The translations under genes and the position numbers were made by a program. Positions 10,325 to 41,085 of a stretch of DNA of 64,000 nucleotides are shown one piece after another. The notes under the pieces were generated by a model. The model was not told the origin of the DNA, searched no databases, and was given only the letters and a program-made list of their open reading frames with translations. The DNA comes from a virus, in the IMG/VR virus record IMGVR_UViG_3300050821_002957, positions 143,192-207,191 of that record; one strand, 5' to 3'. Position 1 is the stretch's first letter, and each line of letters begins with the position of its first letter.

Positions 10325-11752
10325 ATGAATTTTGAAACTTTGAAGCACACAAACTATGGGGCAACTGTCGTAACGCTCTCGAAGTTTGTTGCATTGGAAA
10401 AGGGTGATGGTGGCCGTCAGGCGTGCGACAACGTGAAAGCTGCGTTGATTTTTGGTATGCAGGTTATCGTCAGCAAGGATGTCGAAGCTGGTTCGGTAGG
10501 TCTGTATTTCCCTGCGGAGACTGCGCTGTCAGCAGAATTCCTGGGTCAGAACAACCTCTATCGCAAGGCCGAGTTTGGCAACACCGATCCCGAAAAGAAG
10601 GGATTTTTCGAGCAGCATGGTCGTGTCCGTGTCGTGAAGTTCCGTGGTCACAAGTCGGAAGGCTTCTGGATTCCGCTGGACTCACTCAAGTATCTGGGCC
10701 TGCCGCTGTCGGAATTTCCAGTTGGTGCTGAATTCGATTTTGTGAACGAACACGAAATCTGCCACAAGTACATTCCTCGCCGTAACCGGGTGTCGAATCC
10801 TTGTGCGCCTCGTGGCCGTAAGGCTCGTGTCGAAGACAAGCTGGTAGACGGTCAGTTCCGTTTCCATATCGATACGGCGCAGCTTCGTCGTAATGCTCAT
10901 CGTATCGAACCGGACACGTTAATCTCGGTGTCTGAGAAGTGGCATGGTACGTCGGCCATCTTCTCGAACATCCTGGTAAAGCGTGATCTGGCGTGGTATG
11001 AGCGTGCGCTGAAGTGGCTGGGCACGAAGATCCAGGAATACGAATTCGGTTTCACCTGGGCGTCTCGCCGTGTTGTGAAGGGTGTGGATGGCGAAGCAAA
11101 GAAGGATGCCGTTCATTTTTACTCGACCGACATCTGGGGCACGGTCGCAAAGGAAGTCCAGGAATTCATTCCGAAGGGCTTCACGATTTACGGCGAAATT
11201 GTCGGCTTTACGCCGGATGGTGGTGCGATCCAAAAGGGTAAGACTGGTGTTTACCATTATGGTTGCCAGCCGGGTACGCATCGCTTCTTGGTGTATCGTG
11301 TCACGTCAACGAACTACGATGGTAAGGTCGTAGAACTGGCGTGGCCGCAAATGAAGGAATTCTGCCGCAAGTACGGTCTCGAAATGGTCAAGGAACTATA
11401 CTATGGCCGTGCGGATGGATTCTTTCCGATGGATCGAGTTGAAGCGTTCGACAACGAAGGCTATTCAATCGGTAATCGCAACATGACGCTCGACGAATGG
11501 CAGGAAGGTTTTGTCAAGGCGCTTGAAAAGGCGTTTGTCTATGACCAGATGTGCCAACACAACAACATGGAAGTTCCGGCAGAAGGTGTCGTGGTCCGTG
11601 TTGAACGCTACGACGAATGCGAAGCCTTCAAACTGAAGTCGTTCCTGTTCCTCCAGCACGAGTCTGATCAGTTGGACAAGGGCGAACTGGACATGGAAAC
11701 GGCAGAAGCCGAAGGTGGCGCTGACGAAGTTACGGAAGGCGCAGAAGCATGA
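10325..11752 (+). CDS. putative RNA ligase (Rnl2/Rnl5-like nucleotidyltransferase with N-terminal extra domain)
   Basis: 475-aa ORF. Segment SEKWHGTSAIFSN matches covalent nucleotidyltransferase motif I (KxHGxN type of the Rnl2 family). An approximately 200-aa N-terminal domain precedes it. Confidence 0.45.
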   Translation: MNFETLKHTNYGATVVTLSKFVALEKGDGGRQACDNVKAALIFGMQVIVSKDVEAGSVGLYFPAETALSAEFLGQNNLYRKAEFGNTDPEKKGFFEQHGRVRVVKFRGHKSEGFWIPLDSLKYLGLPLSEFPVGAEFDFVNEHEICHKYIPRRNRVSNPCAPRGRKARVEDKLVDGQFRFHIDTAQLRRNAHRIEPDTLISVSEKWHGTSAIFSNILVKRDLAWYERALKWLGTKIQEYEFGFTWASRRVVKGVDGEAKKDAVHFYSTDIWGTVAKEVQEFIPKGFTIYGEIVGFTPDGGAIQKGKTGVYHYGCQPGTHRFLVYRVTSTNYDGKVVELAWPQMKEFCRKYGLEMVKELYYGRADGFFPMDRVEAFDNEGYSIGNRNMTLDEWQEGFVKALEKAFVYDQMCQHNNMEVPAEGVVVRVERYDECEAFKLKSFLFLQHESDQLDKGELDMETAEAEGGADEVTEGAEA

Positions 11753-14144: not shown

Positions 14145-14152
14145 CAAAACTA

Positions 14153-27060: not shown

Positions 27061-28227
27061 ATGAAACTCATCTCAAAACTCACAGCAATTCTCGCCCTGT
27101 TTACAGCAGCGGCATTCGCACAACAGACGTATCCATTCACTCTCTCTCCAAATGGTGGTGTTTCGGCTACTCTGAACAAGTACACATCTCCTAGCATCGT
27201 TCAAATTCCGACGCCCGTAGTCGTATCTCTGGCAAGTGGTGTTGTCGGCAATCACGTCGTCAGTGTCAACATGCCGCCGACTGTCGATGTCAACGGAAAC
27301 ATCAATACAGCGATGTTCAGCTTTACAATTACCAACGCTGATGGTTCCTATAACGGATCACAAGGTTTGGTTCTTGGATCAGGTGGCCCTACATCAGTCT
27401 ATTTGAATGTCAACGTTGCTCTTCTACCGGCTACCTCGGGTCAACCTCTTGGTATTCCAATGTACGTCACGGATGCTTCGTCGGGATTGACATCAGCAAT
27501 CTTTTTCTACATCACCAATGTGGATGGTCGCACTTACGTCTACCCAGCGTCGAATGTTCGGGCACTCCCACACGTTGCAAGTGGTGTAGGTTGGCAGACA
27601 ATCGTAGAGTTCACAAATCAGAATTCTTCAAACACTCAGGTTCGTGTTGACTTCTCTGATCAATCTGGAAATCCTTTGGCGCTGCACTTAGCTGACGGTC
27701 GCCAAGCATCTTCCATTTACGAAGACATCAATGCTCATGGAAATGCAAGTATCACTATCGCCGATTCAGCCGCAACCTCGACGATCATTGCAACCGCTTT
27801 GGTCACTCCAACGATTGGTTTTCCAGTTGGCGTTACTGAAATTTTCAATACGACAAACGTTCCGCATTCGGCTGGTGTTGCGGCACAGCTTATCAATACC
27901 GATAGTTTGACATTCTTTTATGACACAACCAACGGCAATGCAATTGGTCTGGCTCTTCTCAATTCGTTGAACTATGCCGAACCGTTGACATTGACCTACT
28001 ACGATCAGTTCGGAAATCAACTGGCACAGACTACAGAGACATTGTGCGCCGGATGCCAGATCGCTCGTACACTCACCGCAGCAGTCGTTCCTGCTATTCA
28101 AGGTAAGACTGGCACGATCACAGCATCCTTCCCGGCTGGTTTTTCGGCAATGACTGGAATTGCTTTCCGTTTTGATTCTAATTTCTTCTTCATTCCGATT
28201 CTTCCTATCACCAACACAATTCAGTAA
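27061..28227 (+). CDS. secreted T/S/N-rich protein (signal peptide)
   Basis: MKLISKLTAILALFTAAAFAQQ signal sequence; low-complexity body. Confidence 0.65.
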   Translation: MKLISKLTAILALFTAAAFAQQTYPFTLSPNGGVSATLNKYTSPSIVQIPTPVVVSLASGVVGNHVVSVNMPPTVDVNGNINTAMFSFTITNADGSYNGSQGLVLGSGGPTSVYLNVNVALLPATSGQPLGIPMYVTDASSGLTSAIFFYITNVDGRTYVYPASNVRALPHVASGVGWQTIVEFTNQNSSNTQVRVDFSDQSGNPLALHLADGRQASSIYEDINAHGNASITIADSAATSTIIATALVTPTIGFPVGVTEIFNTTNVPHSAGVAAQLINTDSLTFFYDTTNGNAIGLALLNSLNYAEPLTLTYYDQFGNQLAQTTETLCAGCQIARTLTAAVVPAIQGKTGTITASFPAGFSAMTGIAFRFDSNFFFIPILPITNTIQ

Positions 28228-28236
28228 AAAGGAAAT

Positions 28237-28258
28237 GGGACGTTCTTCGGAGCGTCCC
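28237..28258 (+). terminator. UUCG-tetraloop hairpin (GGGACGTTC-TTCG-GAGCGTCCC)
   Basis: 9-bp stem with a C(UUCG)G loop of the type abundant in T4 transcripts. Confidence 0.4.
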
Positions 28259-28266
28259 AAACTTTC

Positions 28267-28650
28267 ATGGGATATTACACAAAATTTTGGTTGACTATCG
28301 AACAAGGTCTCATTGATGATTTCGGGAAGGTTTATGATCTTCTCAGTAAAATTGTGACGGATGGACAAGGTTCTCCGTTTTATTACGAAGCCGACAGCGA
28401 TCAACTCAGTAGTGATGACACCATGACTTGGTACGATCATGATGAAGACTGTGCCGAAATGTCAAAGTCATTTCCTGATGTCACATTTTGCCTGGAAGGT
28501 CAAGGTGAAGAAGCCAGTGATACTTGGAAAAGTTATTATCGAAATGGTTTAATGCAAATCAGTCGGGCGATCATTACGTATCCACCATTTGATCCAACAA
28601 AGCTGAAGTCAGTATTTGAGGCTCAATCAAATGACAACGGACGACCTTAA
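28267..28650 (+). CDS. hypothetical protein
   Basis: 127-aa ORF. Confidence 0.5.
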   Translation: MGYYTKFWLTIEQGLIDDFGKVYDLLSKIVTDGQGSPFYYEADSDQLSSDDTMTWYDHDEDCAEMSKSFPDVTFCLEGQGEEASDTWKSYYRNGLMQISRAIITYPPFDPTKLKSVFEAQSNDNGRP

Positions 28651-28680
28651 AGCAAAATCATTAAAAACGGGAATTAAACA

Positions 28681-29076
28681 ATGCCTATCACCGATCTTTG
28701 GCTCGACGATGATCCAAGAAGAAAACTTCCCATCTGTGGAATTAGCTGGACATGGGTGCGTACCGCCGATGAAGCCATACTAGCTCTCCAGACTGGCACT
28801 GTAGAATTTGCCTCGCTCGATCATGATCTGGCTGACGAACATTACGTCAAGTTTTTTGAAGCTGAAGAAAATGGCACAGAACTAGACACATCCGACTGCA
28901 AAGAACGAACCGGATATGACGTTCTCCTGTGGATGCGAGAGAACAATGTCTGGCCCTCTGAAGGTGTCCGAATCCACACAATGAATACCGTCAGAAAACC
29001 CATTATGTTGGCAATGGTCTACGAGCATTATGGGCGCACTTTTCAATATCAATACGCCGGGACGCACAATGTCTAA
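28681..29076 (+). CDS. receiver (REC)-like domain protein (cyclic-phosphate-processing receiver type)
   Basis: LWLDDDP...SLDHDL...IHTMN pattern resembling CheY-like fold variants found in phages. Confidence 0.35.
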   Translation: MPITDLWLDDDPRRKLPICGISWTWVRTADEAILALQTGTVEFASLDHDLADEHYVKFFEAEENGTELDTSDCKERTGYDVLLWMRENNVWPSEGVRIHTMNTVRKPIMLAMVYEHYGRTFQYQYAGTHNV

Positions 29077-29108
29077 CAACTTGACAAATAAGGGAAATTT
29101 TTGATAGA

Positions 29109-29696
29109 ATGGGTTCTGAAAAAATGGTAAGAAAAATCGGTCTCGCCGGAAAAAGCGGAAGCGGAAAAGATGTGGTGGCCGACTATTTAGGAGACCGCTA
29201 CAGCTACAAGAAAATTGCTGTTGCCGATGCGATCCGTAATGAAGTAGCTGACTTTTTTGATCATGCATTAGGATCGTGGTTTACCCACATTCCCGGATTC
29301 GTCACTGTCATCAAAGCATTCAAAGGCATGGTCTGGGAAAAACCTACACACTCAGCCATGCGTGTTCTGTTACAGTGGTGGGGTACAGAATATCGTCGTT
29401 CACAAGATCCTGATTACTGGACCAAAAAACTAGCTGCTCGTCTTGACAATAATGAATGGATAGTTGTATCTGATGTTCGTACACCCGAAGAAATGCGTGT
29501 AATTCGTGAAGCTGGTGGCGAAGTTTGGTTTGTATCTCGTCCTGGTGTTGCGCCGGTCGGAATTCCGAATCATTACACCGAAGTCGCCTTAGAGGGTGCA
29601 ACGTTCGATCAAACAATTTTGAATGACGGAACCTTAGAAGATTTGTTCCAACTTGTTGATTGGAAAGCAGATAGTTTCTGTAATTGCAAGTCCTAG
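29109..29696 (+). CDS. deoxynucleoside monophosphate kinase (T4 gene 1-like)
   Basis: P-loop GLAGKSGSGKD. C-terminal VVSDVRTPEEMRVIREAGGEVWFVSRPG...HYTE...ILNDGTLEDLF mirrors the T4 dNMP kinase segment DTRQDHE...VIHVVRPG...THITE...ITNDGSLEELF. Confidence 0.75.
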   Translation: MGSEKMVRKIGLAGKSGSGKDVVADYLGDRYSYKKIAVADAIRNEVADFFDHALGSWFTHIPGFVTVIKAFKGMVWEKPTHSAMRVLLQWWGTEYRRSQDPDYWTKKLAARLDNNEWIVVSDVRTPEEMRVIREAGGEVWFVSRPGVAPVGIPNHYTEVALEGATFDQTILNDGTLEDLFQLVDWKADSFCNCKS

Positions 29697-29766
29697 TACT
29701 TTAGTCCAATTGATGTATCTCTTGGGGTATGCTAGAGTGGTTTCCAGTGTGGAGACACTCTTTTCA

Positions 29767-30441
29767 ATGAAGACTATCAAACTGTTTTTCGCAACTATTT
29801 TTCTTGCCTTGGCTTCTAATGCCGTTGCAAGCTCTGTAACCATCGACTTCACTGCGCTACCCGGTCAGACCGCTGGTGGTGAGTACGTCGGCTTCTCACA
29901 GGCGACGATCATCACGCCGACTCAGACCTTCACCAATTTCGATCTGATCTGTGACGATTTCGAGCATACGACCAACATGCCAAGCGGCCCGTTCACTTAC
30001 GATGTATCGACGCTGCCTACGTTGTCGAACGTTCGTTGGACGCAATCACCGGAACTAATGGACTATGAATTGGCGGCAATCATCGTCTACACTTTCAACG
30101 GACTTGGTTCTGGTCAGAGTGCAGCCGCAGGAGCTTATAACTTTGCTTTGTGGGACCTGTTCGATCCGTCTGCTCCGACCTTTACGGGATCGGCGGCAGT
30201 ATTGAGTGCAGCGCAGACTCAGTACAATCTGGGCGCAAGCAATGCCGCAAACATTCATGCGTACAATCAGATTCAAATCTTCACTCCGGTGGGCGATTCT
30301 GCCAGCAACCAGGAGTTCTTGGGACTCTCTGGTACGCCGATTGGTGGGCCGCAGACACCTGAGCCTACCTCGATGCTTTTGTTGGGGTCTGGTCTGGTGT
30401 TCTTCGGCGTGATCGGTCGCAAGCGTCTCGCCAAACAGTAA
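29767..30441 (+). CDS. secreted protein with C-terminal PEP-CTERM sorting signal
   Basis: Signal peptide MKTIKLFFATIFLALASNAVA. C-terminus PEPTSMLLLGSGLVFFGVIGRKRLAKQ (PEP motif, TM helix, basic tail). Confidence 0.6.
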   Translation: MKTIKLFFATIFLALASNAVASSVTIDFTALPGQTAGGEYVGFSQATIITPTQTFTNFDLICDDFEHTTNMPSGPFTYDVSTLPTLSNVRWTQSPELMDYELAAIIVYTFNGLGSGQSAAAGAYNFALWDLFDPSAPTFTGSAAVLSAAQTQYNLGASNAANIHAYNQIQIFTPVGDSASNQEFLGLSGTPIGGPQTPEPTSMLLLGSGLVFFGVIGRKRLAKQ

Positions 30442-30454
30442 TTGGTGTGATATA

Positions 30455-31051
30455 ATGGCGAATGTGATGACCAAAGAAGAGCTTGACCGACGCATTAAAG
30501 AGCGAGCGCCTCATAGTGAAGCAGTCCGTGAAGGCATGGAGCTTGTCGAGCGAGCACGCACATTCGCCATTAAAAATCACGGTGACCAAAAGTATGACAC
30601 CGAACCCTATTCAGTGCATCTTGACGCCGTAGAGAACGTTCTAATCGAATTTGACCACATTTCCTCAGTCTTACGTGCGGCAGCGTGGCTTCATGATCTT
30701 GTCGAAGACACGAATGTTTCCCAGGCCGAAATCGACATCGAATTTCCTGGCTATGTTGCATTGATCGTTGGTGCTGTTACTTCAGAACCAGGGAAAAATC
30801 GTCGTGAACGAAACATTAAGACGTATCCAAAGATCGCACAGTACCCCGAAGCAATCATTCTCAAATTGGCCGACCGCATTGCAAACGTCCGCAACTGCAT
30901 CGCCACTCAAAGCGATTTGTTGAACATGTACCGCAAAGAGTATCCTGCCTTTCGTCTTGCGTTGAAAAGCGATAATCCCGACGTAAAACGGATGTGGTGG
31001 TATCTTGATTTCCTAATGAGTTACAATGACGACAGCAAACAAAGCCAATAG
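30455..31051 (+). CDS. HD-domain (p)ppGpp hydrolase of the SpoT/Mesh1 small-alarmone-hydrolase type
   Basis: NHGDQKYDTEPYSVHLDAV, WLHDLVEDT, ADRIANVRN. Confidence 0.7.
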   Translation: MANVMTKEELDRRIKERAPHSEAVREGMELVERARTFAIKNHGDQKYDTEPYSVHLDAVENVLIEFDHISSVLRAAAWLHDLVEDTNVSQAEIDIEFPGYVALIVGAVTSEPGKNRRERNIKTYPKIAQYPEAIILKLADRIANVRNCIATQSDLLNMYRKEYPAFRLALKSDNPDVKRMWWYLDFLMSYNDDSKQSQ

Positions 31052-31328
31052 AATAATCTTTCTTGCACGTACCAGCGAAACACGAACACGTCAAGCCATG
31101 ATCGATGCCAAGATCACATTGGCAGGCGTGGAGGCAATGTATGATGCTTGGGTTCGTGAGTATAACAGTGATCCTGACAACTTCGAGCCGGGACCGGGAT
31201 TTCATCGACCCAATCCGTACAATGTCGAAAATGCACAAGAACAAGTAAAGCGAGCAGAAGAAGCCTATAACGAAGCACGAGAGACACTGGAATTTGCAAC
31301 TGATGAATTTGTTCGCCGCCTTGTCTGA
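31026..31328 (+). CDS. hypothetical protein
   Basis: 100-aa ORF. Confidence 0.4.
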   Translation: MTTANKANRIIFLARTSETRTRQAMIDAKITLAGVEAMYDAWVREYNSDPDNFEPGPGFHRPNPYNVENAQEQVKRAEEAYNEARETLEFATDEFVRRLV

Positions 31329-31749
31329 CGAAGAAGAGCCTCCGGTTACACGTCTAGTCAACATCCGAAAGAAAAAAGATAGCATTTGGTACACCTGTGA
31401 TGTTAGAATAGATCGAGGTAGCTATTGGGGAAATCCTTTCAGTCATCTTCGAGCGAGTGCCGCTAAGTATCTTGTGGCGACCAGGAAAGAAGCCATCGAG
31501 AGTTATCGAGACTATGTTTTATCTCGCCCGGACATGATGGCTAGATTGGGTGAACTTAAAGGAAAGACGTTAGGGTGTTGGTGTGTATCAAAACCTTGGA
31601 CCTTTGGTGATTCGCCGCCAGAGGACTATGTGTGTCATGGACAAATTCTGATACAATTGATGCATGGATCGGCGCACACTAGCAGCGATTGGAATGAAAC
31701 TGGAAGAAGGAAGACTGAAGATGGCGGCAGCGAAGAAAAAGAAGTCTGA
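31303..31749 (+). CDS. DUF4326-family protein
   Basis: WGNPF...GKTLGCWC...CHG signature; first ATG of a TTG-initiated frame. Confidence 0.55.
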   Translation: MNLFAALSDEEEPPVTRLVNIRKKKDSIWYTCDVRIDRGSYWGNPFSHLRASAAKYLVATRKEAIESYRDYVLSRPDMMARLGELKGKTLGCWCVSKPWTFGDSPPEDYVCHGQILIQLMHGSAHTSSDWNETGRRKTEDGGSEEKEV

Positions 31750-32101
31750 AGTCAAAACGGAGTCATACAACGAATTCCGAGAGCGAGTTCTGACTGTCTG
31801 TGCTCGTGAAGCGCCGGATCAAGCGATCACTGAGGTCAGCACAAATACTGTAAGAAAAACGGTTCTGTACTATACGAACCCGGCCAAAAACAGTGACAAG
31901 GTTTACATCGCCGAAATCCTTAAGAGTAAAACATCGACTTTGTACGACGTTGTTTTTCAGTACGGAAGACGGGGCGGAACTTTGAAAGATGGCTTCAAAA
32001 AACGGAGTGTCGTGTGGTCCGAAGCGTTTCATGCCTACAACAAAGTGCTCGACGAGAAATTGAAAGAAGGATATACCCAAGACATTAAGGGTGGTTTATG
32101 A
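31721..32101 (+). CDS. hypothetical protein
   Basis: ATG preceded by a GGAAGAAGGAAG RBS; 126 aa. Confidence 0.5.
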   Translation: MAAAKKKKSEVKTESYNEFRERVLTVCAREAPDQAITEVSTNTVRKTVLYYTNPAKNSDKVYIAEILKSKTSTLYDVVFQYGRRGGTLKDGFKKRSVVWSEAFHAYNKVLDEKLKEGYTQDIKGGL

Positions 32102-32346
32102 AAAAATGCGTTAATTGCGGTCAAAACGACGCTAAGGCCGACTCTGTAATTTGTCAAGCGTGTGAGAACAGCGCTGCTGGATTACCTAAAGAATTTGCCG
32201 ATCAAGTCAAAGAATATGGCCGGATGATGAAAGAGTCGATGGACAAATGCGAAGCTGCTTGTGGCGTCGGATCTGGTTGTGTTAAAATTGGCAACTGTAT
32301 GGCTCATGCTCCAGGTTGTAAAAATGGTATTGGAAGTCATTTCTAA
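32098..32346 (+). CDS. small Cys-rich protein
   Basis: CVNCG...CQACE...C...C pairs. Confidence 0.45.
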   Translation: MKKCVNCGQNDAKADSVICQACENSAAGLPKEFADQVKEYGRMMKESMDKCEAACGVGSGCVKIGNCMAHAPGCKNGIGSHF

Positions 32347-32347
32347 A

Positions 32348-32506
32348 ATGAGCTACGACACGAAATGGCTGCTTTGTTTCTTGGTTGTGTTGGCCTCTGC
32401 AATCGTAATTGATTGTACTCCTAACCTTTTGATTCAGAGTGTGTCGGGATGTGCCGGTATTGTCGCAACCGGATTTGTGCTGTATAATTATTATAAGTCA
32501 TTATGA
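32348..32506 (+). CDS. small membrane protein (52 aa)
   Basis: Hydrophobic ORF. Confidence 0.3.
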   Translation: MSYDTKWLLCFLVVLASAIVIDCTPNLLIQSVSGCAGIVATGFVLYNYYKSL

Positions 32507-33039
32507 GCCTGTTTCTCAGAGCATTGGTGCGTAGCGAAGGCAAGAGTTGCGAAGGCAAACTCAAGTATCCTCGTGAGGACTCTGCTGTCCGTAATGCTCT
32601 CGCAATGACCGAAAAGAAAAAGAAGCTCCACGCTGCCGAGGGCCGGGAGTCAACCGAATTTTTTGAGACGTACAAATGCAACTTTTGTGACGGCTGGCAT
32701 ATCGGTCACCAAACCAACTTCGATTGGATTCCACAGTCACACCGGGCGCAGCATTTGATGATGAATAAGTACGAGTGCTTCAGCAAAATCGATGAAGTCG
32801 TGTGTGGCAAAATTTGGATCAGCAACACAGTTTTCTCGAATCGAATTCTGGAGCATTTTCCGAACGTCAAAGATGAAATGGAGCGTCTTGTTATTTGTCC
32901 GAAATGCAAAGGAACACTGTACAAGAATCATGGCCGTCTTTGGGTGAATCTGGAGACGATCAACCCAGAATCCACTGAAACCATCGAAGCACTTTGGGCC
33001 AAACAAGATGTATCTGTTGACAATCTCGCCGAATCGTGA
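32503..33039 (+). CDS. hypothetical protein with Cys pairs
   Basis: 178-aa ORF. Confidence 0.55.
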   Translation: MSLFLRALVRSEGKSCEGKLKYPREDSAVRNALAMTEKKKKLHAAEGRESTEFFETYKCNFCDGWHIGHQTNFDWIPQSHRAQHLMMNKYECFSKIDEVVCGKIWISNTVFSNRILEHFPNVKDEMERLVICPKCKGTLYKNHGRLWVNLETINPESTETIEALWAKQDVSVDNLAES

Positions 33040-33045
33040 TAGAGT

Positions 33046-33261
33046 TTGTTCATGACGTACCGTATTCGTTTTCGCAACATAGGTTCCTTGCACGAATCGG
33101 AACCAAAGACTTTCAATGAGGCATGGGTTATCGCCATCAATCTCTCCCATTGGAATCAGCGTGTCGATATTATTGACGCTGAGACCGGCGAAGTACTCAA
33201 ATCCTCAGAACCGTACTCCGAGAATGGGGCACGGCAACTTGAAGCGATGCTGGCGCAGTAA
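33046..33261 (+). CDS. hypothetical small protein
   Basis: 71-aa ORF. Confidence 0.45.
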   Translation: MFMTYRIRFRNIGSLHESEPKTFNEAWVIAINLSHWNQRVDIIDAETGEVLKSSEPYSENGARQLEAMLAQ

Positions 33262-33395
33262 AGGCCAATCCTGGTGATTCGTGGAGCCTCTGCTGTTCGA
33301 GGCTCTCCCCACCGGGGTCTTATAAATAAAAACGTGGCAACCCCACATAGGAGGTCATCAATGTCAAGATTTATAGCTTAGGAGGCTTTAAATAC

Positions 33396-34304
33396 ATGCG
33401 TGATGACATCGTAAAACTCATTTACGAAAAAGAGCGGGGAGGATCTCGTTCAAAGTCCCTCAAGACTGGAAAGAAACTCGATCCTCGCATTGACTATGAC
33501 GACGATTTTGATTGGGGTCCGAAACGGATTTCCATAGCTCGTCGTAAAGAATATGGTTGGGACTGCAAGAGTCTCAATTACAATTTGCGTCCTCTCTATC
33601 GGTTCCTGGATCAGTCTGTGGGCCGACCTTGGAATGACGTACACAGCGAGATCCACAGTCAGATTGATCCTCGCACAGCCAACGGCCACACCATTTACAA
33701 ATGCATGGATCACCACGTTGACTCGCATGGCAATGGTGTAGTAAGCTGGCGGCGTTACGGCGGTGGTTTGTACGTCGATGATGACGGTATCCTTTGCAAG
33801 ACCGAATACCATCCTCGTCAACGTCCTGAAGTGCCTGTGACTTCGCTGCACTGGTACGATAATATCTGGTTTCAGCTTCACACTTTTAAGACCAAGGCAA
33901 AGTGTGGATGCGTTCACTTCAAGGAGCCGGTTCATCCTGAGGATGCTGATAAACCTCGTTGGTATCGTCCGTATCGAAACGAGCCTGCCGTCTGCATCCA
34001 CGGTAACGAACCTCTCACTCGTGAAATTTGGTACGTTGTCGAATACGTCTACCACAAGCCGGATGAAATCTACATGGTTCACAAGCTCGAAGACTATCGT
34101 CAACCTGGAGGCGGTCTTCGGCGTGGCTATGAGAAGTGGGGCCTGAGCGAAAGCTACCCGGTTCACTATGTCTACTATCGTGACGTTCCTGAGAAAATGA
34201 AGGACCCAATTGAAAAGTTGACCAAGCGCCGCACTGCAAACCGCAAACACTTGAAGCTCATTCGTAAAGCATTGGAAAAGGCCGCTGGACAAAAAGCGGC
34301 CTGA
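33396..34304 (+). CDS. hypothetical W/Y/H-rich protein
   Basis: Strong AGGAGG RBS; 302 aa. Confidence 0.65.
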   Translation: MRDDIVKLIYEKERGGSRSKSLKTGKKLDPRIDYDDDFDWGPKRISIARRKEYGWDCKSLNYNLRPLYRFLDQSVGRPWNDVHSEIHSQIDPRTANGHTIYKCMDHHVDSHGNGVVSWRRYGGGLYVDDDGILCKTEYHPRQRPEVPVTSLHWYDNIWFQLHTFKTKAKCGCVHFKEPVHPEDADKPRWYRPYRNEPAVCIHGNEPLTREIWYVVEYVYHKPDEIYMVHKLEDYRQPGGGLRRGYEKWGLSESYPVHYVYYRDVPEKMKDPIEKLTKRRTANRKHLKLIRKALEKAAGQKAA

Positions 34305-34319
34305 TGCTACAATGAGTGC

Positions 34320-34526
34320 ATGAGATTTCTGTGTACGTTCCTTTTCTTTTTTGCAATTCTCTTGGGTGCCGAGACTCTTGCTAACAGTCACCATTTTATG
34401 GTGACCGGCACAGTACGAAATTACACAATCACAGAATTTCAACCTTCAAAGAACACACATTGTTACGTACTTGAACCTCATTACGATAGCAACTCACCAT
34501 CGATCAGTTGCGTCGTCGAGCCATAA
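34320..34526 (+). CDS. small secreted protein
   Basis: Signal-peptide-like N-terminus. Confidence 0.4.
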   Translation: MRFLCTFLFFFAILLGAETLANSHHFMVTGTVRNYTITEFQPSKNTHCYVLEPHYDSNSPSISCVVEP

Positions 34527-35089
34527 TGAAACCTCAAACACAAGAGCAATTCCATTTTTTCTATGGAGGTCCGTTCTCACAATGGGCCTTCTCGCCGTTC
34601 ACTGTCAATGGCATTTACTACAAGACCGCCGAGCATTACATGATGTGGTACAAAGACCAACTTTTCGGTGGTACACTCTCCGATGAAATTCTTGCTGTCG
34701 ATCATCCTCGTGATGCAAAGTTATTGGGCCGGAAAGTTCCAAATTTTAACATCAATGTTTGGAATGCTGTCGCCAAGCCGGGTGTCTATCGTGGCAACAT
34801 GGCGAAGTTCACACAAAATCCTCTCATGCTTCAACAGTTAATGGAGACCTATGGTTACACGTTGGTTGAAGCCTCGCCGACCGATATTGTCTGGGGAATC
34901 GGTTTGGGGGAGCATGATCCGCTGCGTCTTGACCGTTCAAATTGGCGTGGAACGAATTGGTTGGGTGATGTACTTATGGATGTTCGAGACACGTTGACGC
35001 TTGCCTATCGTTGGCATGATGATCCTTCTGAGATCGGCAATCCAACAATCATCGAAGGTGAGAATTTGATTGGATCGGTCGAGCTATGA
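34526..35089 (+). CDS. NADAR-domain protein (YbiA / DUF1768 N-glycosidase family)
   Basis: FFYGGPFSQWAFSPF, TAEHYMMWYK, GRKVPNFN, LVEASPTDIVWGIGL, WRGTNWLGDVLMDVR. Confidence 0.75.
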   Translation: MKPQTQEQFHFFYGGPFSQWAFSPFTVNGIYYKTAEHYMMWYKDQLFGGTLSDEILAVDHPRDAKLLGRKVPNFNINVWNAVAKPGVYRGNMAKFTQNPLMLQQLMETYGYTLVEASPTDIVWGIGLGEHDPLRLDRSNWRGTNWLGDVLMDVRDTLTLAYRWHDDPSEIGNPTIIEGENLIGSVEL

Positions 35090-35445
35090 CCGCAAAAATG
35101 ATATTGGAATTAGAAGACGTTTTGGACAGAAAAGAGTCTCAAGAACTGACTCGTACTTTATTGTGTCGTTTGCTGGCAAAGTACCGAGCGGCAAATTTCT
35201 TCATAAAGTATCACATCTCGTTGAATCGTACATATCCACAAATTATTTTGCAATATCCAGACAGCCGAAAAGAACGCTGGCTGTACAAAGAAAAAGGACT
35301 TGAACTGATTCCTTTTGGATTGCCAATCGTCTATAAGGTTCCTACCACAGTACGAAAGTGTGGGCAAATACATAGTTGTCGTAATGGATGTTCCCAATGC
35401 TGGGAGATCACCAAAATTGAAAAGGGGTATACCGAGGTAAGATGA
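35086..35445 (+). CDS. hypothetical protein
   Basis: 119-aa ORF. Confidence 0.45.
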   Translation: MTAKMILELEDVLDRKESQELTRTLLCRLLAKYRAANFFIKYHISLNRTYPQIILQYPDSRKERWLYKEKGLELIPFGLPIVYKVPTTVRKCGQIHSCRNGCSQCWEITKIEKGYTEVR

Positions 35446-36029
35446 TTTACTCAGGAACCGGCCATCGACTGGAAGTGTTGCGTGGGGCCGACGAAACTAT
35501 CGATCTAGAAGTTATCCACCACAAAGCTGTCAGGTATGCGAAAAGCATTCTTCCATCTTACGCCGACATCACTCAAGGTATTTCAGGAATGGCAATTGGA
35601 TGGGACACTGCCTTTGCTCTAGCTCTGCTCGATCACGGTGTCCCAGTGATCGCTGCCATTCCGTTTATTGGTCAAGAAAGCATTTGGCCGGAACATGCCA
35701 AAAAACGTTATCACGAAATTCTTGACAAGTGCGCCGAGGTCCATGTTGTCTGTGAAGGTGGTTACGCTCCGCACAAATATCATGAGCGGGACAAATGGAT
35801 GGTCGAGCGGGGTCAAAAAATGATGGCTCTATGGAACGGTCATCCAAAAGGTGGAACTGCTGCGACCGTGCGCTATGCAAAGAAGGCAGGCAAAGAAATT
35901 GTCAATGTCTGGCCGGGATGGGAAATTTTTGAAATTGGATGCCCATGCGGATGCGGAGCCGATAGCGAGTCACATTGTTGGAATGCTTCTACGTGGGATA
36001 ATGAAGGTGGTCAAACTCAAATTTTTTGA
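35442..36029 (+). CDS. SLOG-superfamily Rossmann protein (LOG/DprA/YpsA-like)
   Basis: GISGMAIGWDTAFALALLDHGVPVIAAIPF and a later GGTAATVRYA segment resemble the LOG-family PGGxGT region. Confidence 0.45.
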   Translation: MIYSGTGHRLEVLRGADETIDLEVIHHKAVRYAKSILPSYADITQGISGMAIGWDTAFALALLDHGVPVIAAIPFIGQESIWPEHAKKRYHEILDKCAEVHVVCEGGYAPHKYHERDKWMVERGQKMMALWNGHPKGGTAATVRYAKKAGKEIVNVWPGWEIFEIGCPCGCGADSESHCWNASTWDNEGGQTQIF

Positions 36030-36325
36030 TACGACGTATACCCATACCGTTTCCGAATTGCATTATGAGCCTTCTCTTGTAAAACTGAATCAACCGTTGG
36101 ACTAGACCATGTATAAAAAGTTGCTTGAGTTGTTCGATTGACATGATCCACTGTGATCACACCATGCTGAAGAGAACGGTGATCGTCAATGCCATGATCG
36201 TCGGCTAGAACTTTATGTGATTCTTTGTCGGTGCCGATTACGTAACGGTCAAAATCTAAAATGTATGGATAAACTTCCTTAACCAATTGAGAATGTTTTT
36301 TCATTGAATTCGTGGTATACTTCAT
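36017..36325 (-). CDS. hypothetical protein (lone minus-strand gene)
   Basis: Protein-like ORF; no alternative plus-strand ORF covers this stretch. Confidence 0.35.
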   Translation of the reverse strand: MKYTTNSMKKHSQLVKEVYPYILDFDRYVIGTDKESHKVLADDHGIDDHRSLQHGVITVDHVNRTTQATFYTWSSPTVDSVLQEKAHNAIRKRYGYTSYQKI

Positions 36326-36338
36326 CCCAGAAATATTT

Positions 36339-36695
36339 ATGCAGAGAATCACTCCAGACCCAACCGGAAAAGACGCTCCAACCCCAGAAACATTGGTGAA
36401 TATGCTATATGGCAGAGTCGAGGAACTTGAAGCCATTGTGAAACGCCTAGAGCCTCAACCGCATTGGTCGGGAGCATCTAAAAGTCTTGTGATGCGTCTG
36501 AGAGGCATCTACGCAATAGGCCCAAACGCAATGCAAATGGGACCCAACGACAAACCAGAATTTGGCTGGCGCACTTTCGACCAAATGCCTCCAATCCAAT
36601 TTGAAGCGGCAGCACGCATTCAAGAATTGGAAGACAGACTTCAAAAATGCCTTGAACGATTTTTCAAACAGGAATGTGATCTTCGAGGAATCTGA
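36339..36695 (+). CDS. hypothetical protein
   Basis: First ATG of a GTG-initiated frame. Confidence 0.45.
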   Translation: MQRITPDPTGKDAPTPETLVNMLYGRVEELEAIVKRLEPQPHWSGASKSLVMRLRGIYAIGPNAMQMGPNDKPEFGWRTFDQMPPIQFEAAARIQELEDRLQKCLERFFKQECDLRGI

Positions 36696-36913
36696 TGTCA
36701 CAAGGCGTTTTTAGTTCTTGTGGTTTTTGTGGACTCCATCTCCCTTTGACTTTTGATGAACAAAAAGATGCCGACCGAGCATGGAAATTCAGCGGAATGA
36801 ACATCCATGAATGGCATCGCCGCAAGTTTCCAAATTACCATCCCCGGTTGACATTCAAGGTTCCGCTTGATATCATTGAGAAATGTCAAAGCCAGACAAA
36901 AAAGATTCAGTGA
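36695..36913 (+). CDS. hypothetical small protein
   Basis: 72-aa ORF. Confidence 0.4.
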   Translation: MSQGVFSSCGFCGLHLPLTFDEQKDADRAWKFSGMNIHEWHRRKFPNYHPRLTFKVPLDIIEKCQSQTKKIQ

Positions 36914-37863
36914 TCCTTACCGGGACCATTGGATCTCATAGCTACGGAACGGCCACGCCGACTTCAGATTACGACTACATGTCCGTCGTGATTGCATCGT
37001 CTGACGTGTACCTGGGTCTTGACAATTGGGGAACTGCTGGAACCAAAGACGACGTTTACGAAGATCCCGAAAAGAGTCTGGTCGAACATCGGTATTTTGA
37101 ATTGAAAAAGTTCGTTGGTATGTGCGCCGGAATGAACCCAAATGCAGTTCCGCTTTTGTGGCTGCAACCGGAGCACTACGAAACCATGTCGGCGGCTGGT
37201 AGAAAGCTCGTCCAGGCCCGAGAGATTTTTAATTCCAAAAAAGCATACGATACGTTCTCTGGTTACGCTCATGGTCAGCTTCAAAAAATGGGCGGCGTGT
37301 TCAATGATGCCGAAGAGTCGAACAAACTCTTGAAGCAAGGTCATATCAAATTTCAAGACTGGTCTGAAGACATGATCAAGCTGCTTCGGATGATTCGTGA
37401 TGGAAAGTCACCGATCCCTGAAGACGCCAAGCCTGCGGACATTTACATTTACGACGAAGGATGGTTGAACGCTCTTATTGCCTTGAAGACTCATTCCAAG
37501 GAAGAGATCAAGCGTATCAAAGACGGTCCAATCACCGGGCGCATGGGAGCGAAGCGGAAAGAGCTTCGTTCTCAATATGGTTTCGACACTAAATTTGCTT
37601 TTCATACGATTCGACTGATGAGAATGTGCGTCGAATTTCTTACGCACCCTGAAGAAGGTCTGAAGGTGTACCGCAAAGACATCGATGCTGACTTCTTGTA
37701 CTCAATCAGAACCGGCGCTGTCTCACAAGAAGACATCAAGAAGATGGCCGACGACCTGTTCGCTCAAGCCAAAGAAGCCTTGGTCACCACGTCTCTTCCA
37801 GATAAGCCTGACACCGAAGCAATTCATAACTTGACGATGGACCTGATTAGATCATCCATTTGA
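36883..37863 (+). CDS. predicted minimal nucleotidyltransferase (PF10127-like)
   Basis: LTGTIGSHSYGTATPTSDYDYMSVV (GS...D-x-D motif); 326 aa. Confidence 0.5.
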   Translation: MSKPDKKDSVILTGTIGSHSYGTATPTSDYDYMSVVIASSDVYLGLDNWGTAGTKDDVYEDPEKSLVEHRYFELKKFVGMCAGMNPNAVPLLWLQPEHYETMSAAGRKLVQAREIFNSKKAYDTFSGYAHGQLQKMGGVFNDAEESNKLLKQGHIKFQDWSEDMIKLLRMIRDGKSPIPEDAKPADIYIYDEGWLNALIALKTHSKEEIKRIKDGPITGRMGAKRKELRSQYGFDTKFAFHTIRLMRMCVEFLTHPEEGLKVYRKDIDADFLYSIRTGAVSQEDIKKMADDLFAQAKEALVTTSLPDKPDTEAIHNLTMDLIRSSI

Positions 37864-37907
37864 CAGATCACAACTTTCCATAGCAGCTATATAACTAATA
37901 GACTGCT

Positions 37908-38372
37908 ATGGATATTACACAGTACATTTCGGTGGGTTTGAGTGCCTTGGGACTTGTAGGTGGTTTATTCTCCTACGTTCTAAGCCTACGTATCAAACAC
38001 GACATTCTAGAGAACAACGAAAAACTTGAAAAAGACATTCAAGCTGCAAAGGACGCAGCTACAGTTGGACTATCTCAACTTAGGAATGATTTACTTCGAG
38101 AGTTTGGAACCAATCAGGATAAGGGCGACGAAAAACGAGAACGCCTTGAACGTGAATTGGGCGATCTCCAGGCCGGTCTTACAGATCGTATTCTAAATGC
38201 AGTAAATGGGAAGTATGTAAGGATCGATATTCATCAACAAGCTATAGCCAATATTCAAGATCGTTTCCTATCCATGAAAGAACTTATCGAAGTCAACATG
38301 GGTAAGATTGAGCAAGGTCTGGATCGGCAAATTTTAGACTTGAAGGATCGAATCTTTCATCAACCCAAATAA
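37908..38372 (+). CDS. membrane-anchored coiled-coil protein
   Basis: N-terminal TM helix and heptad repeats. Confidence 0.5.
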   Translation: MDITQYISVGLSALGLVGGLFSYVLSLRIKHDILENNEKLEKDIQAAKDAATVGLSQLRNDLLREFGTNQDKGDEKRERLERELGDLQAGLTDRILNAVNGKYVRIDIHQQAIANIQDRFLSMKELIEVNMGKIEQGLDRQILDLKDRIFHQPK

Positions 38373-38382
38373 GGGGTAAGCA

Positions 38383-38541
38383 ATGGCCGATAAAGCTGTA
38401 GCAACGAAAAGAGAGAAACTTACCATCGATCCCCGAGAATTGATGTTGTATGAGCTTCAAAAGGTCCGTAAGACATTCGCAGACGTAGCGGTCCAAGTAT
38501 CCAAGGATCTTACGAAAGTGATGCCTACAAACTTGACATAA
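38383..38541 (+). CDS. hypothetical small protein (52 aa)
   Basis: AAGGGG RBS. Confidence 0.3.
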   Translation: MADKAVATKREKLTIDPRELMLYELQKVRKTFADVAVQVSKDLTKVMPTNLT

Positions 38542-39989: not shown

Positions 39990-40018
39990 TTGACAGGATA
40001 CGGGTCTTGTGCTATAAA
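39990..40018 (+). promoter_or_regulatory. sigma70-type promoter TTGACA, 17 bp, TATAAA driving the tmRNA precursor
   Basis: Consensus -35, exact 17-bp spacer and near-consensus -10 lying 7 to 8 nt before the acceptor piece. Confidence 0.6.
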
Positions 40019-40025
40019 TAGAGTC

Positions 40026-40325
40026 GTAGCAGATAGTCGAAGTGAACGAAGAACGCTTCTTGGACATGGGTTCAATTCCCATCGGCTCCACCAAAATTCT
40101 GATTTTAGGCATCAGAGAACTTATGGGGCCGCCCCGGTTTCGACAGGATGAGATGTTGCGTAAGCAGGGCTACCGTGGTCCTTGTCCACGTTATCCAGAA
40201 GGAATCATAAACGCTAATGCACCTGCATTTGCTTTCGCTGCCGCTGCCTAAACAGCGCTCGAACGAAGTCGGAGAACTTTGTTAAAGAACTCCCAACAGA
40301 AGGCCGGGGCAACTCGGCCTTTTGC
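40026..40325 (+). ncRNA. ssrA: circularly permuted (two-piece) tmRNA: acceptor piece ends in CCA at 40093, coding piece starts GGGGCCG at 40125, tag frame 40213..40251, terminator 40301..40325
   Basis: T-arm GGGTTCAATTCCC. 3' acceptor strand CGGCUCC-A-CCA pairs with downstream 5' GGGGCCG, giving G3-U70 and discriminator A (alanine identity). Tag ORF ANAPAFAFAAAA + TAA. GC hairpin followed by a T-run. Confidence 0.75.
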
Positions 40326-40490
40326 TTTTTGAAAGGTTGTGTTTATGAGACGACATTTGAAAATGGTCCATCACCACGGCAAACGAGCACTAAAGTCTAA
40401 GTACGGACAGGTGTTCATCATCCTGTGGTTCGTGCCGGAAGCCATTGCACTTTTTGGTTTGATATGGGCTGCATGGCGACACCTTGTAAA

Positions 40491-40841
40491 ATGAAGTTTC
40501 TTCTGTTCATTCTCTTATTCTTCGCATCAAGCGCCTGGGCCGCAGAGAAGCCTCTTGTCGAAAAATGCTTCAAAGTCCAGTCTCTCATCAAGGCAGATCC
40601 AGAGCATTATTGGGCTACCTGGAAGAACGCCTGTCCGTACATCATTGACTCGATCTACGTAAACGTCGATTTCAAAGACAAGGCCGGAAGCATTCTTGGA
40701 CATGGAGTCTGGTCGCTACATTATGTCAAACCGGGCGAGGGCCGCTACATTCGATTCTCAACTCCATCCTTGACAAGTGACTATTTCTCTGTTATCTTAA
40801 AAGAGATTACTTTGGACGCTTTCAAAGCTCTACGGTACTAA
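40491..40841 (+). CDS. small secreted protein
   Basis: MKFLLFILLFFASSAWA signal peptide (the listed ORF starts upstream at a GTG). Confidence 0.5.
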   Translation: MKFLLFILLFFASSAWAAEKPLVEKCFKVQSLIKADPEHYWATWKNACPYIIDSIYVNVDFKDKAGSILGHGVWSLHYVKPGEGRYIRFSTPSLTSDYFSVILKEITLDAFKALRY

Positions 40842-40932
40842 ATACGAACATGGTACGTTTTTCCACCATCACGACAAGCACTACCACGACCGTCTAGTTC
40901 CTCTAGAACGGTCCACTTCCCATTTCAATTAA

Positions 40933-41008
40933 GCCGAATTAGCTCAGTTAGCAGAGCGCCGCCCTCGTAATGCGGAGGTCATGAGTGCAACTCTCATATT
41001 CGGCTCCA
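40933..41008 (+). tRNA. tRNA-like gene, anticodon CGT (Thr), with noncanonical T-loop (TGCAACT) and 31-39 mismatch; CCA encoded
   Basis: Cloverleaf by hand: acceptor GCCGAAT/ATTCGGC, D GCTC/GAGC, anticodon loop CTCGTAA, T-stem ATGAG/CTCAT. Confidence 0.45.
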
Positions 41009-41011
41009 AAT

Positions 41012-41085
41012 GCCGCCTTATTTCAATGGTAGACTCTATCTCTGGTACAGATAGGATTTGGGTTCGATTCCCAAAGGCGGCTCCA
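41012..41085 (+). tRNA. tRNA, anticodon GGT (Thr) in the best parse (alternative parse CTG/Gln); weak D-stem; CCA encoded
   Basis: Acceptor GCCGCCT/AGGCGGC, anticodon stem TATCT/AGATA with loop CTGGTAC, T-arm TTGGG-TTCGATT-CCCAA. Confidence 0.55.

Follow-up and report, generated by a model that had tools for sequence, protein, structure and literature searches.

The stretch analysed here, hereafter the window, comprises 64,000 nucleotides (nt) of IMG/VR virus record IMGVR_UViG_3300050821_002957 (positions 143,192 to 207,191). It is part of a 405,631-bp contig of a T4-like phage, which we class as a jumbo phage because its 302-aa protein, described below, is recorded on a contig of that length. 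Between 28.2 and 38.4 kb, the window carries a nearly unbroken string of plus-strand open reading frames (ORFs), forming a block of small genes from families linked to ADP-ribose, alarmones and RNA ends (Table 1). A preliminary description of this DNA had named seven of these genes and interpreted them as an anti-defence island that erases nucleotide signals. When domain calls are judged as Pfam profile matches against curated cut-offs, all seven pass with intact catalytic motifs, and the ORF coordinates agree with independent gene calls on a public contig of identical sequence (L013). The three ORFs that had been singled out as unknown (the 178-, 302- and 119-aa ORFs) exist and have no Pfam match. 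Four genes had been overlooked, namely those for the WGR protein, the PEP-CTERM protein and the phrog_6306-like protein, and a 139-aa gene on the minus strand. A hidden Markov model (HMM) scan of all six frames found each block family as a single copy in the window, every copy lying within the block.

The block is located in the non-structural arm, flanked on one side by PhoH and a Cas4-like exonuclease and on the other by the tmRNA/tRNA genes, gp59 and gp32. Overlaps and couplings between ORFs are the strongest local hints of functional pairing. The HD hydrolase, the 100-aa ORF, DUF4326, WGR and the 82-aa ORF form one chain of overlaps, in which the DUF4326 stop and the WGR gene overlap by 29 nt. 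A 68-aa ORF, NADAR, the 119-aa ORF and SLOG are likewise joined via 1- and 4-nt overlaps, with ATGA junctions leading from NADAR through the 119-aa ORF to SLOG. The minus-strand 139-aa ORF shares 66% identity over 101 aa with a minus-strand gene at the same position in one relative (L014); it overlaps the 5' part of the plus-strand ORF 36312-36695, translation of which probably begins at the ATG at 36402.

Table 1 Features of the block, together with the RNA ligase and the tmRNA/tRNA genes encoded elsewhere in the window. Scores are given in bits against the curated cut-off, followed by the E value; the last two columns give presence and identity in the five syntenic relatives (L014-L018). L013 is the identical public contig.
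Feature	Coordinates	Strand	Evidence and remarks	Relatives	Identity
Rnl-type RNA ligase (outside the block)	10325..11752	+	PF09414, 3.7e-10, above cut-off; PHA02142 OB-domain, 21.6 bits, below cut-off of 27		
127-aa phrog_6306-like protein	28267..28650	+	PHROG match, 9e-27; directly upstream of cREC	5/5	38-70%
cREC (cyclic-phosphate-processing receiver-like)	28681..29076	+	cREC_REC PF20274, 65.2 vs 27, 9e-18	5/5	47-79%
T4 gp1-type deoxynucleotide monophosphate kinase (DNMK)	29109..29696	+	PF21448, 70.4 vs 27.1, 2e-19	5/5	57-75%
Secreted protein, signal peptide and C-terminal PEP-CTERM motif	29767..30441 (ORF opens at 29653)	+	PF07589, 2e-05, above cut-off; gene call on L013	4/5	31-53%
Single-domain SpoT/Mesh1-type HD hydrolase, 198 aa	30455..31051	+	HD_4 PF13328, 36.2 vs 27.2, 6e-9	4/5	53-81%
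100-aa ORF between HD and DUF4326	31026..31328	+	26-nt overlap with each neighbour; no family match above cut-off		
DUF4326 protein	31303..31749	+	PF14216, 65.4 vs 25, 8e-18	5/5	48-69%
Stand-alone WGR protein, Lys-rich N-terminus	31721..32101	+	PF05406, 31.2 vs 22, 2.4e-7; PADLOC WGR_XIII, 5.5e-14	5/5	33-50%
82-aa Cys-rich ORF	32098..32346	+	ATGA overlap with WGR stop; weak zinc-ribbon match below cut-off		
178-aa protein with CxxC pairs	32503..33039	+	Weak phrog_14788/15216 matches at N-terminus	3/5	about 54%
71-aa conserved small ORF	33046..33261	+		3/5	54-87%
302-aa protein, large unannotated family, winged-helix-like N-terminal part, CxC...CxH motif	33396..34304	+		5/5	35-63%
YbiA-type NADAR, predicted ADP-ribosyl/ribosyl N-glycohydrolase	34526..35089	+	PF08719, 145.6 vs 35.1, 2e-42	2/5	60-76%
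119-aa orphan ORF between NADAR and SLOG	35086..35445	+	ATGA overlap at each end		
YpsA/YoqJ-type SLOG, Cys-rich C-terminal tail, 195 aa	35442..36029	+	PF06908, 33.7 vs 27.7; DprA PF02481, 31.1	5/5	45-70%
139-aa gene between SLOG and RlaP	36017..36436	-	Called on L013; minus-strand counterpart in L014		
Conserved small ORF upstream of RlaP	36402..36695 (ORF opens at 36312)	+	Homologs in L014 and L017		54-73%
RlaP-family Pol-beta nucleotidyltransferase	36883..37863	+	PF10127, 63 vs 23, 5e-17	5/5	68-87%
154-aa protein, hydrophobic N-terminus, rest mostly helical	37908..38372	+	Follows RlaP	4/5	58-89%
Permuted (two-piece type) tmRNA and two adjacent tRNA-Thr (CGT, GGT)	40001..41085 (40001-40342, 40933-41085)	+	ARAGORN; Rfam RF04321 (tmRNA), 93.5 bits; Rfam tRNA		

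A peptide-pattern search of IMG/VR for relatives of the 302-aa protein returned none; they were recovered instead through a protein database and contig look-ups. The homologs found in this way led to five syntenic relatives, comprising two jumbo contigs of 370 and 375 kb, one contig of 118 kb and two fragments of 28 and 33 kb, across which presence and identity were scored by tblastn. In all five, cREC, DNMK, DUF4326 followed by WGR, the 302-aa protein, SLOG and RlaP keep a constant order. Nine families in total stand in the same order in four or five of the relatives, down to 35% marker identity, the members that vary being NADAR and a number of orphan ORFs. At 45-87% identity, the block genes are about as conserved as the flanking core exonuclease (66-78%); the 302-aa protein is 35-63% identical. 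Because the order is kept and the identities match those of core genes, the block is a vertically inherited syntenic backbone and not a mobile or hypervariable island. The anti-defence theme of the preliminary description is retained, with anti-defence precedents for several of the families, whereas its term "island" is not. Its expectation that the genes would be co-conserved in related phages is borne out by the same-order set in five relatives, and the profile assignments hold as well; the exceptions are NADAR, present in only two relatives, and the HD gene, present in four.

Several gene junctions are conserved along with the order. WGR directly follows DUF4326 in all five relatives, the stop of the phrog_6306-like gene abuts or overlaps the cREC start in three (L015, L016 and L018), and in the two relatives that have NADAR its stop overlaps the start of SLOG. 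By comparison, the 100-, 82-, 68-, 119- and 72-aa ORFs occur in this phage alone among the relatives compared, and the 119-aa ORF has no homolog in any fetched locus besides the identical contig. A megablast search of 28000-40500 against GenBank phages found no similar DNA. The phage is known from metagenomes only, and its group constitutes a previously undescribed clade of metagenomic, T4-like phages of 370-405 kb. Traces of mobile-element damage were seen in the 370-kb relative L014 (2801-4552, 5596-6483 and 7862-8203), where a TnpB/Cas12f-like gene stands between cREC and DNMK and the P-loop region of DNMK is interrupted by an HNH_3 domain. The DUF4326 gene of the same relative has a frameshift in a run of A, possibly through an error of assembly.

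The NADAR match spans profile positions 11-162 of 163. We aligned the protein to chain positions 45, 52 and 127 of 8BAU, with the 2-residue tag offset inferred from the matching spacing, and its E36, K43 and E115 (187-aa numbering) thereby correspond to E43, K50 and E125 of the P. nicotianae NADAR (PnNADAR) and to E88, K95 and D171 of E. coli C7, residues of demonstrated importance for the mechanism in those two enzymes. The position of PnNADAR E125 is diagnostic, with His in the T4 AdfN type and Asp in the DarT-associated type; since the window protein has Glu there, it belongs to the YbiA subfamily and not to the T4 AdfN type. Phage NADARs, including AdfN and several unrelated ones, remove ADP-ribose from DNA guanine and counter DarTG1 (PMC11257639). 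YbiA-subfamily NADARs are reported also to de-ADP-ribosylate guanine and to act as antitoxins (PMC11125620). With AdfN (T4 gp30.3) and the other DarTG1-neutralising phage NADARs (PMC11257639; PMC11543638; PMC11125620), the window protein shares the fold family, the Glu, Lys and acidic positions, and its nature as a stand-alone gene of a T4-like phage that resembles an orphan antitoxin. It differs in having Glu instead of His, in its identity of only 27-55% to GenBank phage NADARs and in being dispensable within its own clade.

For the SLOG protein, an AlphaFold2 model (pLDDT 91.7) has as its top PDB fold match B. subtilis YpsA (2NX2; E 4.4e-10; TM 0.69/0.75), followed by ShosA, DprA and LOG. 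The motifs GTGHR, GxAxGxD and GGT are conserved, and G138 and T139 are invariant in a 46-sequence alignment. The motif PGGxGTxxE of LOG-type phosphoribohydrolases, with its catalytic Glu, is replaced by KGGTAATV, with no acidic residue at +2/+3 in six clade sequences. The protein also passes the DprA model (31.1 vs 29.6 bits), as would suit a DprA-like mediator on single-stranded DNA (ssDNA); the match covers the Rossmann core only, the 195-aa protein is without the SAM and DML1/winged-helix domains of full-length DprA, and the DprA fold matches are weaker than that to YpsA (E 2e-05 vs 4e-10). JGI labels several homologs "phage-like protein YoqJ", a name that we take to denote the YpsA family, and all of them carry PF06908. 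ORF83, a SLOG/DprA-like phage protein, is a listed anti-Avs factor with viral homologs bearing a C-terminal DUF4326, and the EVADES authors report that it is without the DprA dimerisation and RecA-binding residues (10.1101/2025.06.06.658234). The window protein thus resembles B. subtilis YpsA, SPbeta YoqJ, the ShosA antitoxin and, compared by description only, ORF83 in its YpsA-like SLOG Rossmannoid fold, and it has DUF4326-fused homologs as reported for ORF83 relatives; its extra Cys-rich C-terminal tail and the absence of the LOG-type catalytic Glu set it apart.

The DUF4326 protein carries the invariant motifs GNPxSH and C92-W-C94...C111-H-G; a profile search for a solved structure returned none. 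Its family is predicted to be a rhodanese-phosphatase-like phosphatase acting on ribose-linked phosphates (Iyer et al. 2022, PMC9503650). The neighbouring WGR protein has the motif Y-G82-R-R84-G, conserved in six sequences, and a literature search for stand-alone WGR proteins of phages returned none. In PARPs, the WGR domain binds DNA breaks, which would suit a nick sensor in DNA replication.

The HD protein consists of the HD domain alone, no synthetase or regulatory domain being detected, and its PDB sequence matches are Rel/SpoT hydrolase domains, MESH1 and small alarmone hydrolases (SAHs). Residues H55, H80-D81, E84-D85, D140 and N144, which include the metal-binding H...HD...D motif and the ED diad typical of (p)ppGpp hydrolases, are present, align with those of Rel, SpoT, MESH1 and SAH structures, and are conserved in four relatives; we assign the protein on these grounds to a predicted SAH type. 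Stand-alone phage SAHs (PVP-SE1, SSU5) neutralise all tested toxSAS toxins (PMC7229694), and phage SAHs remove the pyrophosphate that FaRel2 places on tRNAGly and tRNAThr, PaSpo being the one that reverses the FaRel2 tRNA modification. The window protein shares with the SAHs of the Salmonella phages PVP-SE1 and SSU5 (PMC7229694, PMC11245113) the single-domain SpoT/Mesh1-type HD architecture, the full HD/ED motif set and the setting in a lytic phage. A Mesh1 homolog has also been reported to hydrolyse NADPH (PMC9765508). The preliminary description had counted the dNMP kinase among the signal erasers, which does not hold. The DNMK has the P-loop GKSGSGKD and a PF21448 match limited to profile positions 114-230, and it represents ordinary T4-type nucleotide metabolism, not counter-defence.

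In cREC, residues D9, D10, D47/H48/D49, T77 and K106 are invariant in six sequences and match the acidic pocket, acceptor Asp, Thr and Lys of Rec domains. The predicted activity of the family is hydrolysis of cyclic phosphates, either 2',3'-cyclic or those of ADP-ribose; its members are said not to occur with histidine kinases at all, and the family, like RlaP, was defined through linkage to RNA ligases (Iyer et al., PMC7824862, PMC9503650). The distance between cREC and NADAR is 5.4 kb in the window and ~700 bp, with cREC upstream, in the IMG/VR loci L003-L007 and L009, whose NADARs are 51-52% identical to that of the window. In RlaP, the translation contains the motif G17-S18...D29-x-D31, which is conserved in the relatives together with the N-terminus from the ATG at 36883. 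Its PF10127 match is limited to the N-terminal part (residues 9-142), and the C-terminal half is helical. The RlaPs of Pseudomonas extend damaged RNA 3' ends by one or two nucleotides and are required for over-trimmed tRNA to regain aminoacylation, and T4 NrdC.11 belongs to the same family (10.64898/2025.12.29.696909). In common with T4 NrdC.11 and the RlaPs of RtcB/Rnl RNA-repair operons, the window protein has an N-terminal PF10127 nucleotidyltransferase with GS...DxD and a helical C-terminal half, and the phage also encodes an Rnl; unlike in those operons, RlaP and ligase lie far apart, and the Pfam match covers the N-terminal 142 residues only. The Rnl is the likely partner of RlaP and cREC. 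The earlier calls of a REC-like protein and a minimal nucleotidyltransferase can therefore be refined to cREC and RlaP, with an RNA-repair and cyclic-phosphate context that had been overlooked; these two genes point at least as strongly to RNA-end repair. In the 375-kb relative L015, the RlaP gene (13001-15025) contains an insertion of ~350 aa with intein-like boundaries (an initial Cys; a terminal His-Asn followed by Thr), which matches LAGLIDADG_3 weakly (22.2 bits vs a cut-off of 22.5). A histidine-kinase-like gene with PAS and HATPase_c domains follows it (15080-16228), ~9 kb from cREC.

The 302-aa protein belongs to a large family, with 4,504 cluster representatives in a profile search at E<=1e-3 and 3,129 at E<=1e-10, most of which share the N-terminal ~160 residues only. 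We found no Pfam model, name or PDB fold match for this family, and ten distant members sampled had no Pfam domain or name either. C172, C200 and H202 are invariant and C170 occurs in at least 90% of the sequences, a Cys/His set that suggests a zinc site. A relation of this CxC...CxH motif to a divergent DUF4326 was considered and rejected (hhalign probability 0.4%). Distant homologs are found 1-1.6 kb from Rnl ligases (L019, L020), adjoining an ADP-ribosylglycohydrolase (ARH) gene (L021) and, in Myxococcus phage Mx1, at a distance of 2.2 kb from a gene with a macro domain; in this small sample, the contexts are suggestive of the same functional neighbourhood. L020, a different T4-like phage, also has a gene with an Acb2/Tad1 hairpin (9426-9821; the anti-CBASS/anti-Thoeris sponge fold) between its 302-aa-family homolog and Rnl.

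Beyond the clade, HMMs built from six close sequences were scanned over 80 SLOG-anchored and 80 DUF4326-anchored IMG/VR loci (+/-10 kb), of which 78 and 76, respectively, remained after removal of same-clade loci and duplicates. DUF4326 occurs near SLOG in 10 of 78 loci, whereas no control family exceeds 1 of 78 (p=0.005), and in many cases the two are direct neighbours or fused. SLOG-DUF4326 fusions of ~320 aa account for at least 11 of 64 SLOG homologs, and adjacency or fusion is seen in L028, L031, L070, L074 and L078. The co-occurrence of DUF4326, NADAR and SLOG in phages that had been anticipated thus holds for the recurrent SLOG-DUF4326 link but not for NADAR, which is not significantly enriched in this sample. 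Individual loci show further combinations: a SLOG-NADAR fusion (L088); SLOG, NADAR, DUF4326 and RlaP within 13 kb (L149, L151 and L168; two jumbo contigs of 433 and 446 kb and one of 94 kb); and DUF4326-SLOG-RlaP followed by a homolog of the 154-aa protein (L104). In phage Mx1, a DUF4326-SLOG fusion lies among tRNA genes, a TROVE/Ro-like protein and a peptidyl-tRNA hydrolase, and in small phages SLOG homologs stand beside primase/helicase genes and are annotated as ssDNA-binding. The full cluster is therefore mostly a property of the clade, whereas the SLOG-DUF4326 link is general.

With moderate confidence, we interpret the vertically inherited block as a toolbox of small stand-alone enzymes that would undo the chemical damage or signals imposed by the host on nucleotides and nucleic acids, and not as a single machine with obligate protein partners. 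Its ADP-ribose arm would consist of DUF4326, translationally coupled to the putative nucleic-acid-binding WGR protein, and of the YpsA-type SLOG, preceded by NADAR where that gene is present. NADAR would cleave ribosyl N-glycosidic bonds, for example those of DarT1-type ADP-ribose on guanine, SLOG would bind or process ADP-ribose-derived nucleotides, and DUF4326 may remove the terminal phosphate from the products of this arm. The HD protein would remove 3'-pyrophosphate groups, either those of (p)ppGpp/(p)ppApp or those that toxic alarmone synthetases place on the CCA ends of tRNA, and cREC would open 2',3'-cyclic or ADP-ribose cyclic phosphates. At RNA ends, RlaP could re-add one or two lost nucleotides, and Rnl, encoded 25 kb upstream, would seal them. 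DNMK belongs to nucleotide metabolism, with the orphan ORFs as presumed passengers and the PEP-CTERM protein as a passenger that is probably unrelated to the enzymes. The domain identities, intact motifs, synteny, gene coupling and SLOG-DUF4326 fusions are observations; for all of these genes, we infer the substrates, early expression and cooperation between the parts.

Several observations weigh against this interpretation. NADAR is absent from three of the five relatives (L014, L015 and L018), so the rest of the block can do without it; far from being the centrepiece that the preliminary description had made of it, this YbiA-type protein is the most dispensable member. The lack of a LOG-type catalytic Glu makes a hydrolytic role of SLOG uncertain, and binding rather than hydrolysis is possible. 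Outside the clade, HD (5/78), NADAR (2/78 and 4/76), RlaP (5/76) and cREC (3/76) show no significant enrichment within 10 kb of the anchors, so that inherited gene order could explain most of the clustering, although these absences are weak evidence because the clade HMMs are narrow. NADAR also passes TIGR02464, the NCBIfam model of a riboflavin-intermediate N-glycosidase, with 132 bits vs 73.7, and the block has auxiliary metabolic genes of the classical kind as its upstream neighbours (GMP reductase, CoaD, peptide deformylase, dCMP deaminase and PhoH). The Rnl ligase is not adjacent to RlaP, and no ligase was found within 10 kb in the five relatives. Sigma-70-like promoter matches are in modest excess only (34 vs 22.2 +/- 4.7 in shuffles). 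Apart from these points, Pfam, PHROG and PADLOC scans of the block detected no known anti-CBASS or anti-Thoeris family (e.g. Acb, Tad), and neither Macro nor Nudix domains were seen in it.

Much of this material could also be arranged as an RNA/tRNA repair and quality-control kit against anticodon nucleases and tRNA-modifying toxins, an alternative that we consider unlikely but credible. In such a kit, cREC, the HD protein (acting on CCA 3'-pyrophosphates), RlaP and Rnl would handle the RNA, NADAR, SLOG and DUF4326 would clear NAD-derived by-products of 2'-phosphate removal (ADP-ribose cyclic phosphate and ADP-ribose 1''-phosphate), and the tmRNA and tRNAs would back up translation. The definition of cREC and RlaP by RNA-ligase linkage, the RNA 3'-extension activity of RlaP and the Rnl in the window all agree with it, although the 25 kb between Rnl and RlaP do not. 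Also in its favour are the tmRNA gene and the pair of tRNA-Thr genes that lie 2-3 kb beyond RlaP, the ability of the phage SAH PaSpo to undo FaRel2 modification on tRNAGly and tRNAThr, and the setting of the Mx1 fusion and of the distant 302-aa homologs near Rnl ligases. RlaP is, moreover, the best conserved block gene, and its intein-like insertion in L015 is of a kind often found in conserved enzymes. However, KptA/Tpt1, polynucleotide kinase-phosphatase and RtcB were not found among the ~70 window proteins scanned, which leaves the NAD-dependent branch without an identified source of by-products. The phage NADARs that have been assayed act on DNA and not on RNA-repair by-products, and the small-phage SLOG homologs adjoin primase/helicase genes.

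In a further alternative, the genes would have no functional relation to one another: they would encode housekeeping or auxiliary metabolic enzymes that share the non-structural arm, their clustering being inherited order. NADAR would then serve damage control of riboflavin intermediates, as its TIGR02464 score allows, even though the window showed no gene of the riboflavin pathway and YbiA-subfamily NADARs are reported to act on ADP-ribosylated guanine as antitoxins (PMC11125620). HD would be a Mesh1-like nucleotide/NADPH phosphatase, in keeping with the NADPH hydrolysis mentioned above, and DNMK and its neighbours would feed nucleotide pools, as do the metabolic flanks in this account. The dispensability of NADAR and of HD in relatives and the mostly non-significant pairwise co-localisations outside the clade fit this. 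What makes it improbable, in our view, is that SLOG-DUF4326 fusions and adjacency recur in unrelated phages, that NADAR, where present, is translationally coupled to SLOG, and that cREC, RlaP, DUF4326 and WGR are without a known metabolic role.

We regard as very doubtful a tighter form of our interpretation, in which the series phrog_6306-like-cREC...DUF4326-WGR...302-aa-(NADAR)-SLOG...RlaP would be one coordinated pathway for recognising and reversing ADP-ribosylation or other end damage of nucleic acids. The WGR and 302-aa proteins, the latter being the founding member of its unannotated family, would both be new to ADP-ribose systems and would act in it as lesion-recognition subunits that hand substrates to NADAR, SLOG and DUF4326; alternatively, SLOG would be a sponge or hydrolase for Thoeris-type cyclic ADP-ribose signals. 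Least probable of all is a service of SLOG, DUF4326, WGR and the 302-aa winged-helix/zinc protein in DNA replication, recombination or modification instead of erasure, for which the DprA-like scores and fold matches of SLOG, its ssDNA-binding annotation next to primase/helicase genes in small phages, the position of the block in the replication/nucleotide arm near gp59 and gp32, and the remarks of Iyer et al. on DUF4326 fusions to replication and restriction-modification components and on DprA-like SLOGs as extra ssDNA-binding proteins (PMC7824862) can be cited, but which is countered by the better YpsA fold match, the YoqJ label with PF06908 on all homologs so named, the fusion or coupling of SLOG to the ADP-ribose-linked NADAR and DUF4326, and the missing DprA residues of ORF83, likened to this SLOG by description only.

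The concept behind the favoured toolbox of stand-alone enzymes has been published. The cREC, NADAR, SLOG, DUF4326 and RlaP repertoire of jumbo and T4-like phages, with its fusions, its neighbourhoods and its predicted early deployment against ADP-ribose signals and in RNA repair, was described by Iyer et al. in 2021 (PMC7824862) and 2022 (PMC9503650). As in that repertoire, the five families occur here as stand-alone small proteins together with host-manipulation and RNA-repair genes of a large myovirus, and SLOG-NADAR-DUF4326 fusions and neighbourhoods are found. The window differs in having one fixed syntenic block, an invariant DUF4326-WGR pair and a constant 302-aa family, and in that Macro and Nudix genes were not seen in the block; WGR has 0 occurrences in the 2022 survey (PMC9503650). 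Modestly new are thus the DUF4326-WGR pair, the constancy of a large unannotated family and the phrog_6306-like-cREC pair. Because the repertoire concept is published and several families have experimental precedents (three of them, through AdfN, the phage SAHs and RlaP), the gain is incremental and not conceptual. If our interpretation is correct, the clade would carry a compact, conserved candidate set for counter-defence and repair, in which cREC, DUF4326 and the phage YpsA-type SLOG are three families without any biochemistry, and the fixed order and coupling (DUF4326-WGR, NADAR-SLOG) indicate which proteins to examine as pairs. The 302-aa family, located near ADP-ribose hydrolases (NADAR, Macro, ARH) or RNA ligases in four independent contexts, is a reasonable target for structural and functional work.

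The remainder of the window is that of a T4-like myovirus. Markers include a gp32 ssDNA-binding protein 41% identical to cyanomyovirus gp32, gp59 and a gp2-type DNA end protector, and the structural genes encode tail tube, baseplate hub and tube-cap proteins as well as a tape-measure-like protein of 1,430 aa with a glucosaminidase domain. Upstream of the block, a run of auxiliary genes (10325-16540 and 18268-18786) comprises the Rnl ligase, a GMP reductase/IMPDH-family enzyme, CoaD, a 795-aa AAA ATPase and a peptide deformylase, and the dCMP deaminase and PhoH genes also lie on this side. A possible assignment of 13614-14132 to NMN adenylyltransferase, and hence to NAD salvage, was rejected in favour of CoaD (pantetheine-phosphate adenylyltransferase; 150 bits vs a cut-off of 103). 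Downstream of the block, the tmRNA encodes the tag ANAPAFAFAAAA; that tRNA-Thr genes occur beside an SAH-type hydrolase, when the targets of FaRel2 include tRNAThr, may be a coincidence.

Secreted or envelope-type proteins are interspersed among the enzymes (29767-30441, 27061-28227, 38551-39117 and 39177-39869). Beside the PEP-CTERM protein, these are three envelope-type proteins with signal peptides, two of which have a C-terminal Phe like outer-membrane proteins; together they imply a Gram-negative host with an exosortase system. A protein with a TnsA-like endonuclease N-terminal domain (PF08722, 68 bits) is encoded on the minus strand at 59653-60177, between the gp2-like end protector and the baseplate tube-cap gene.

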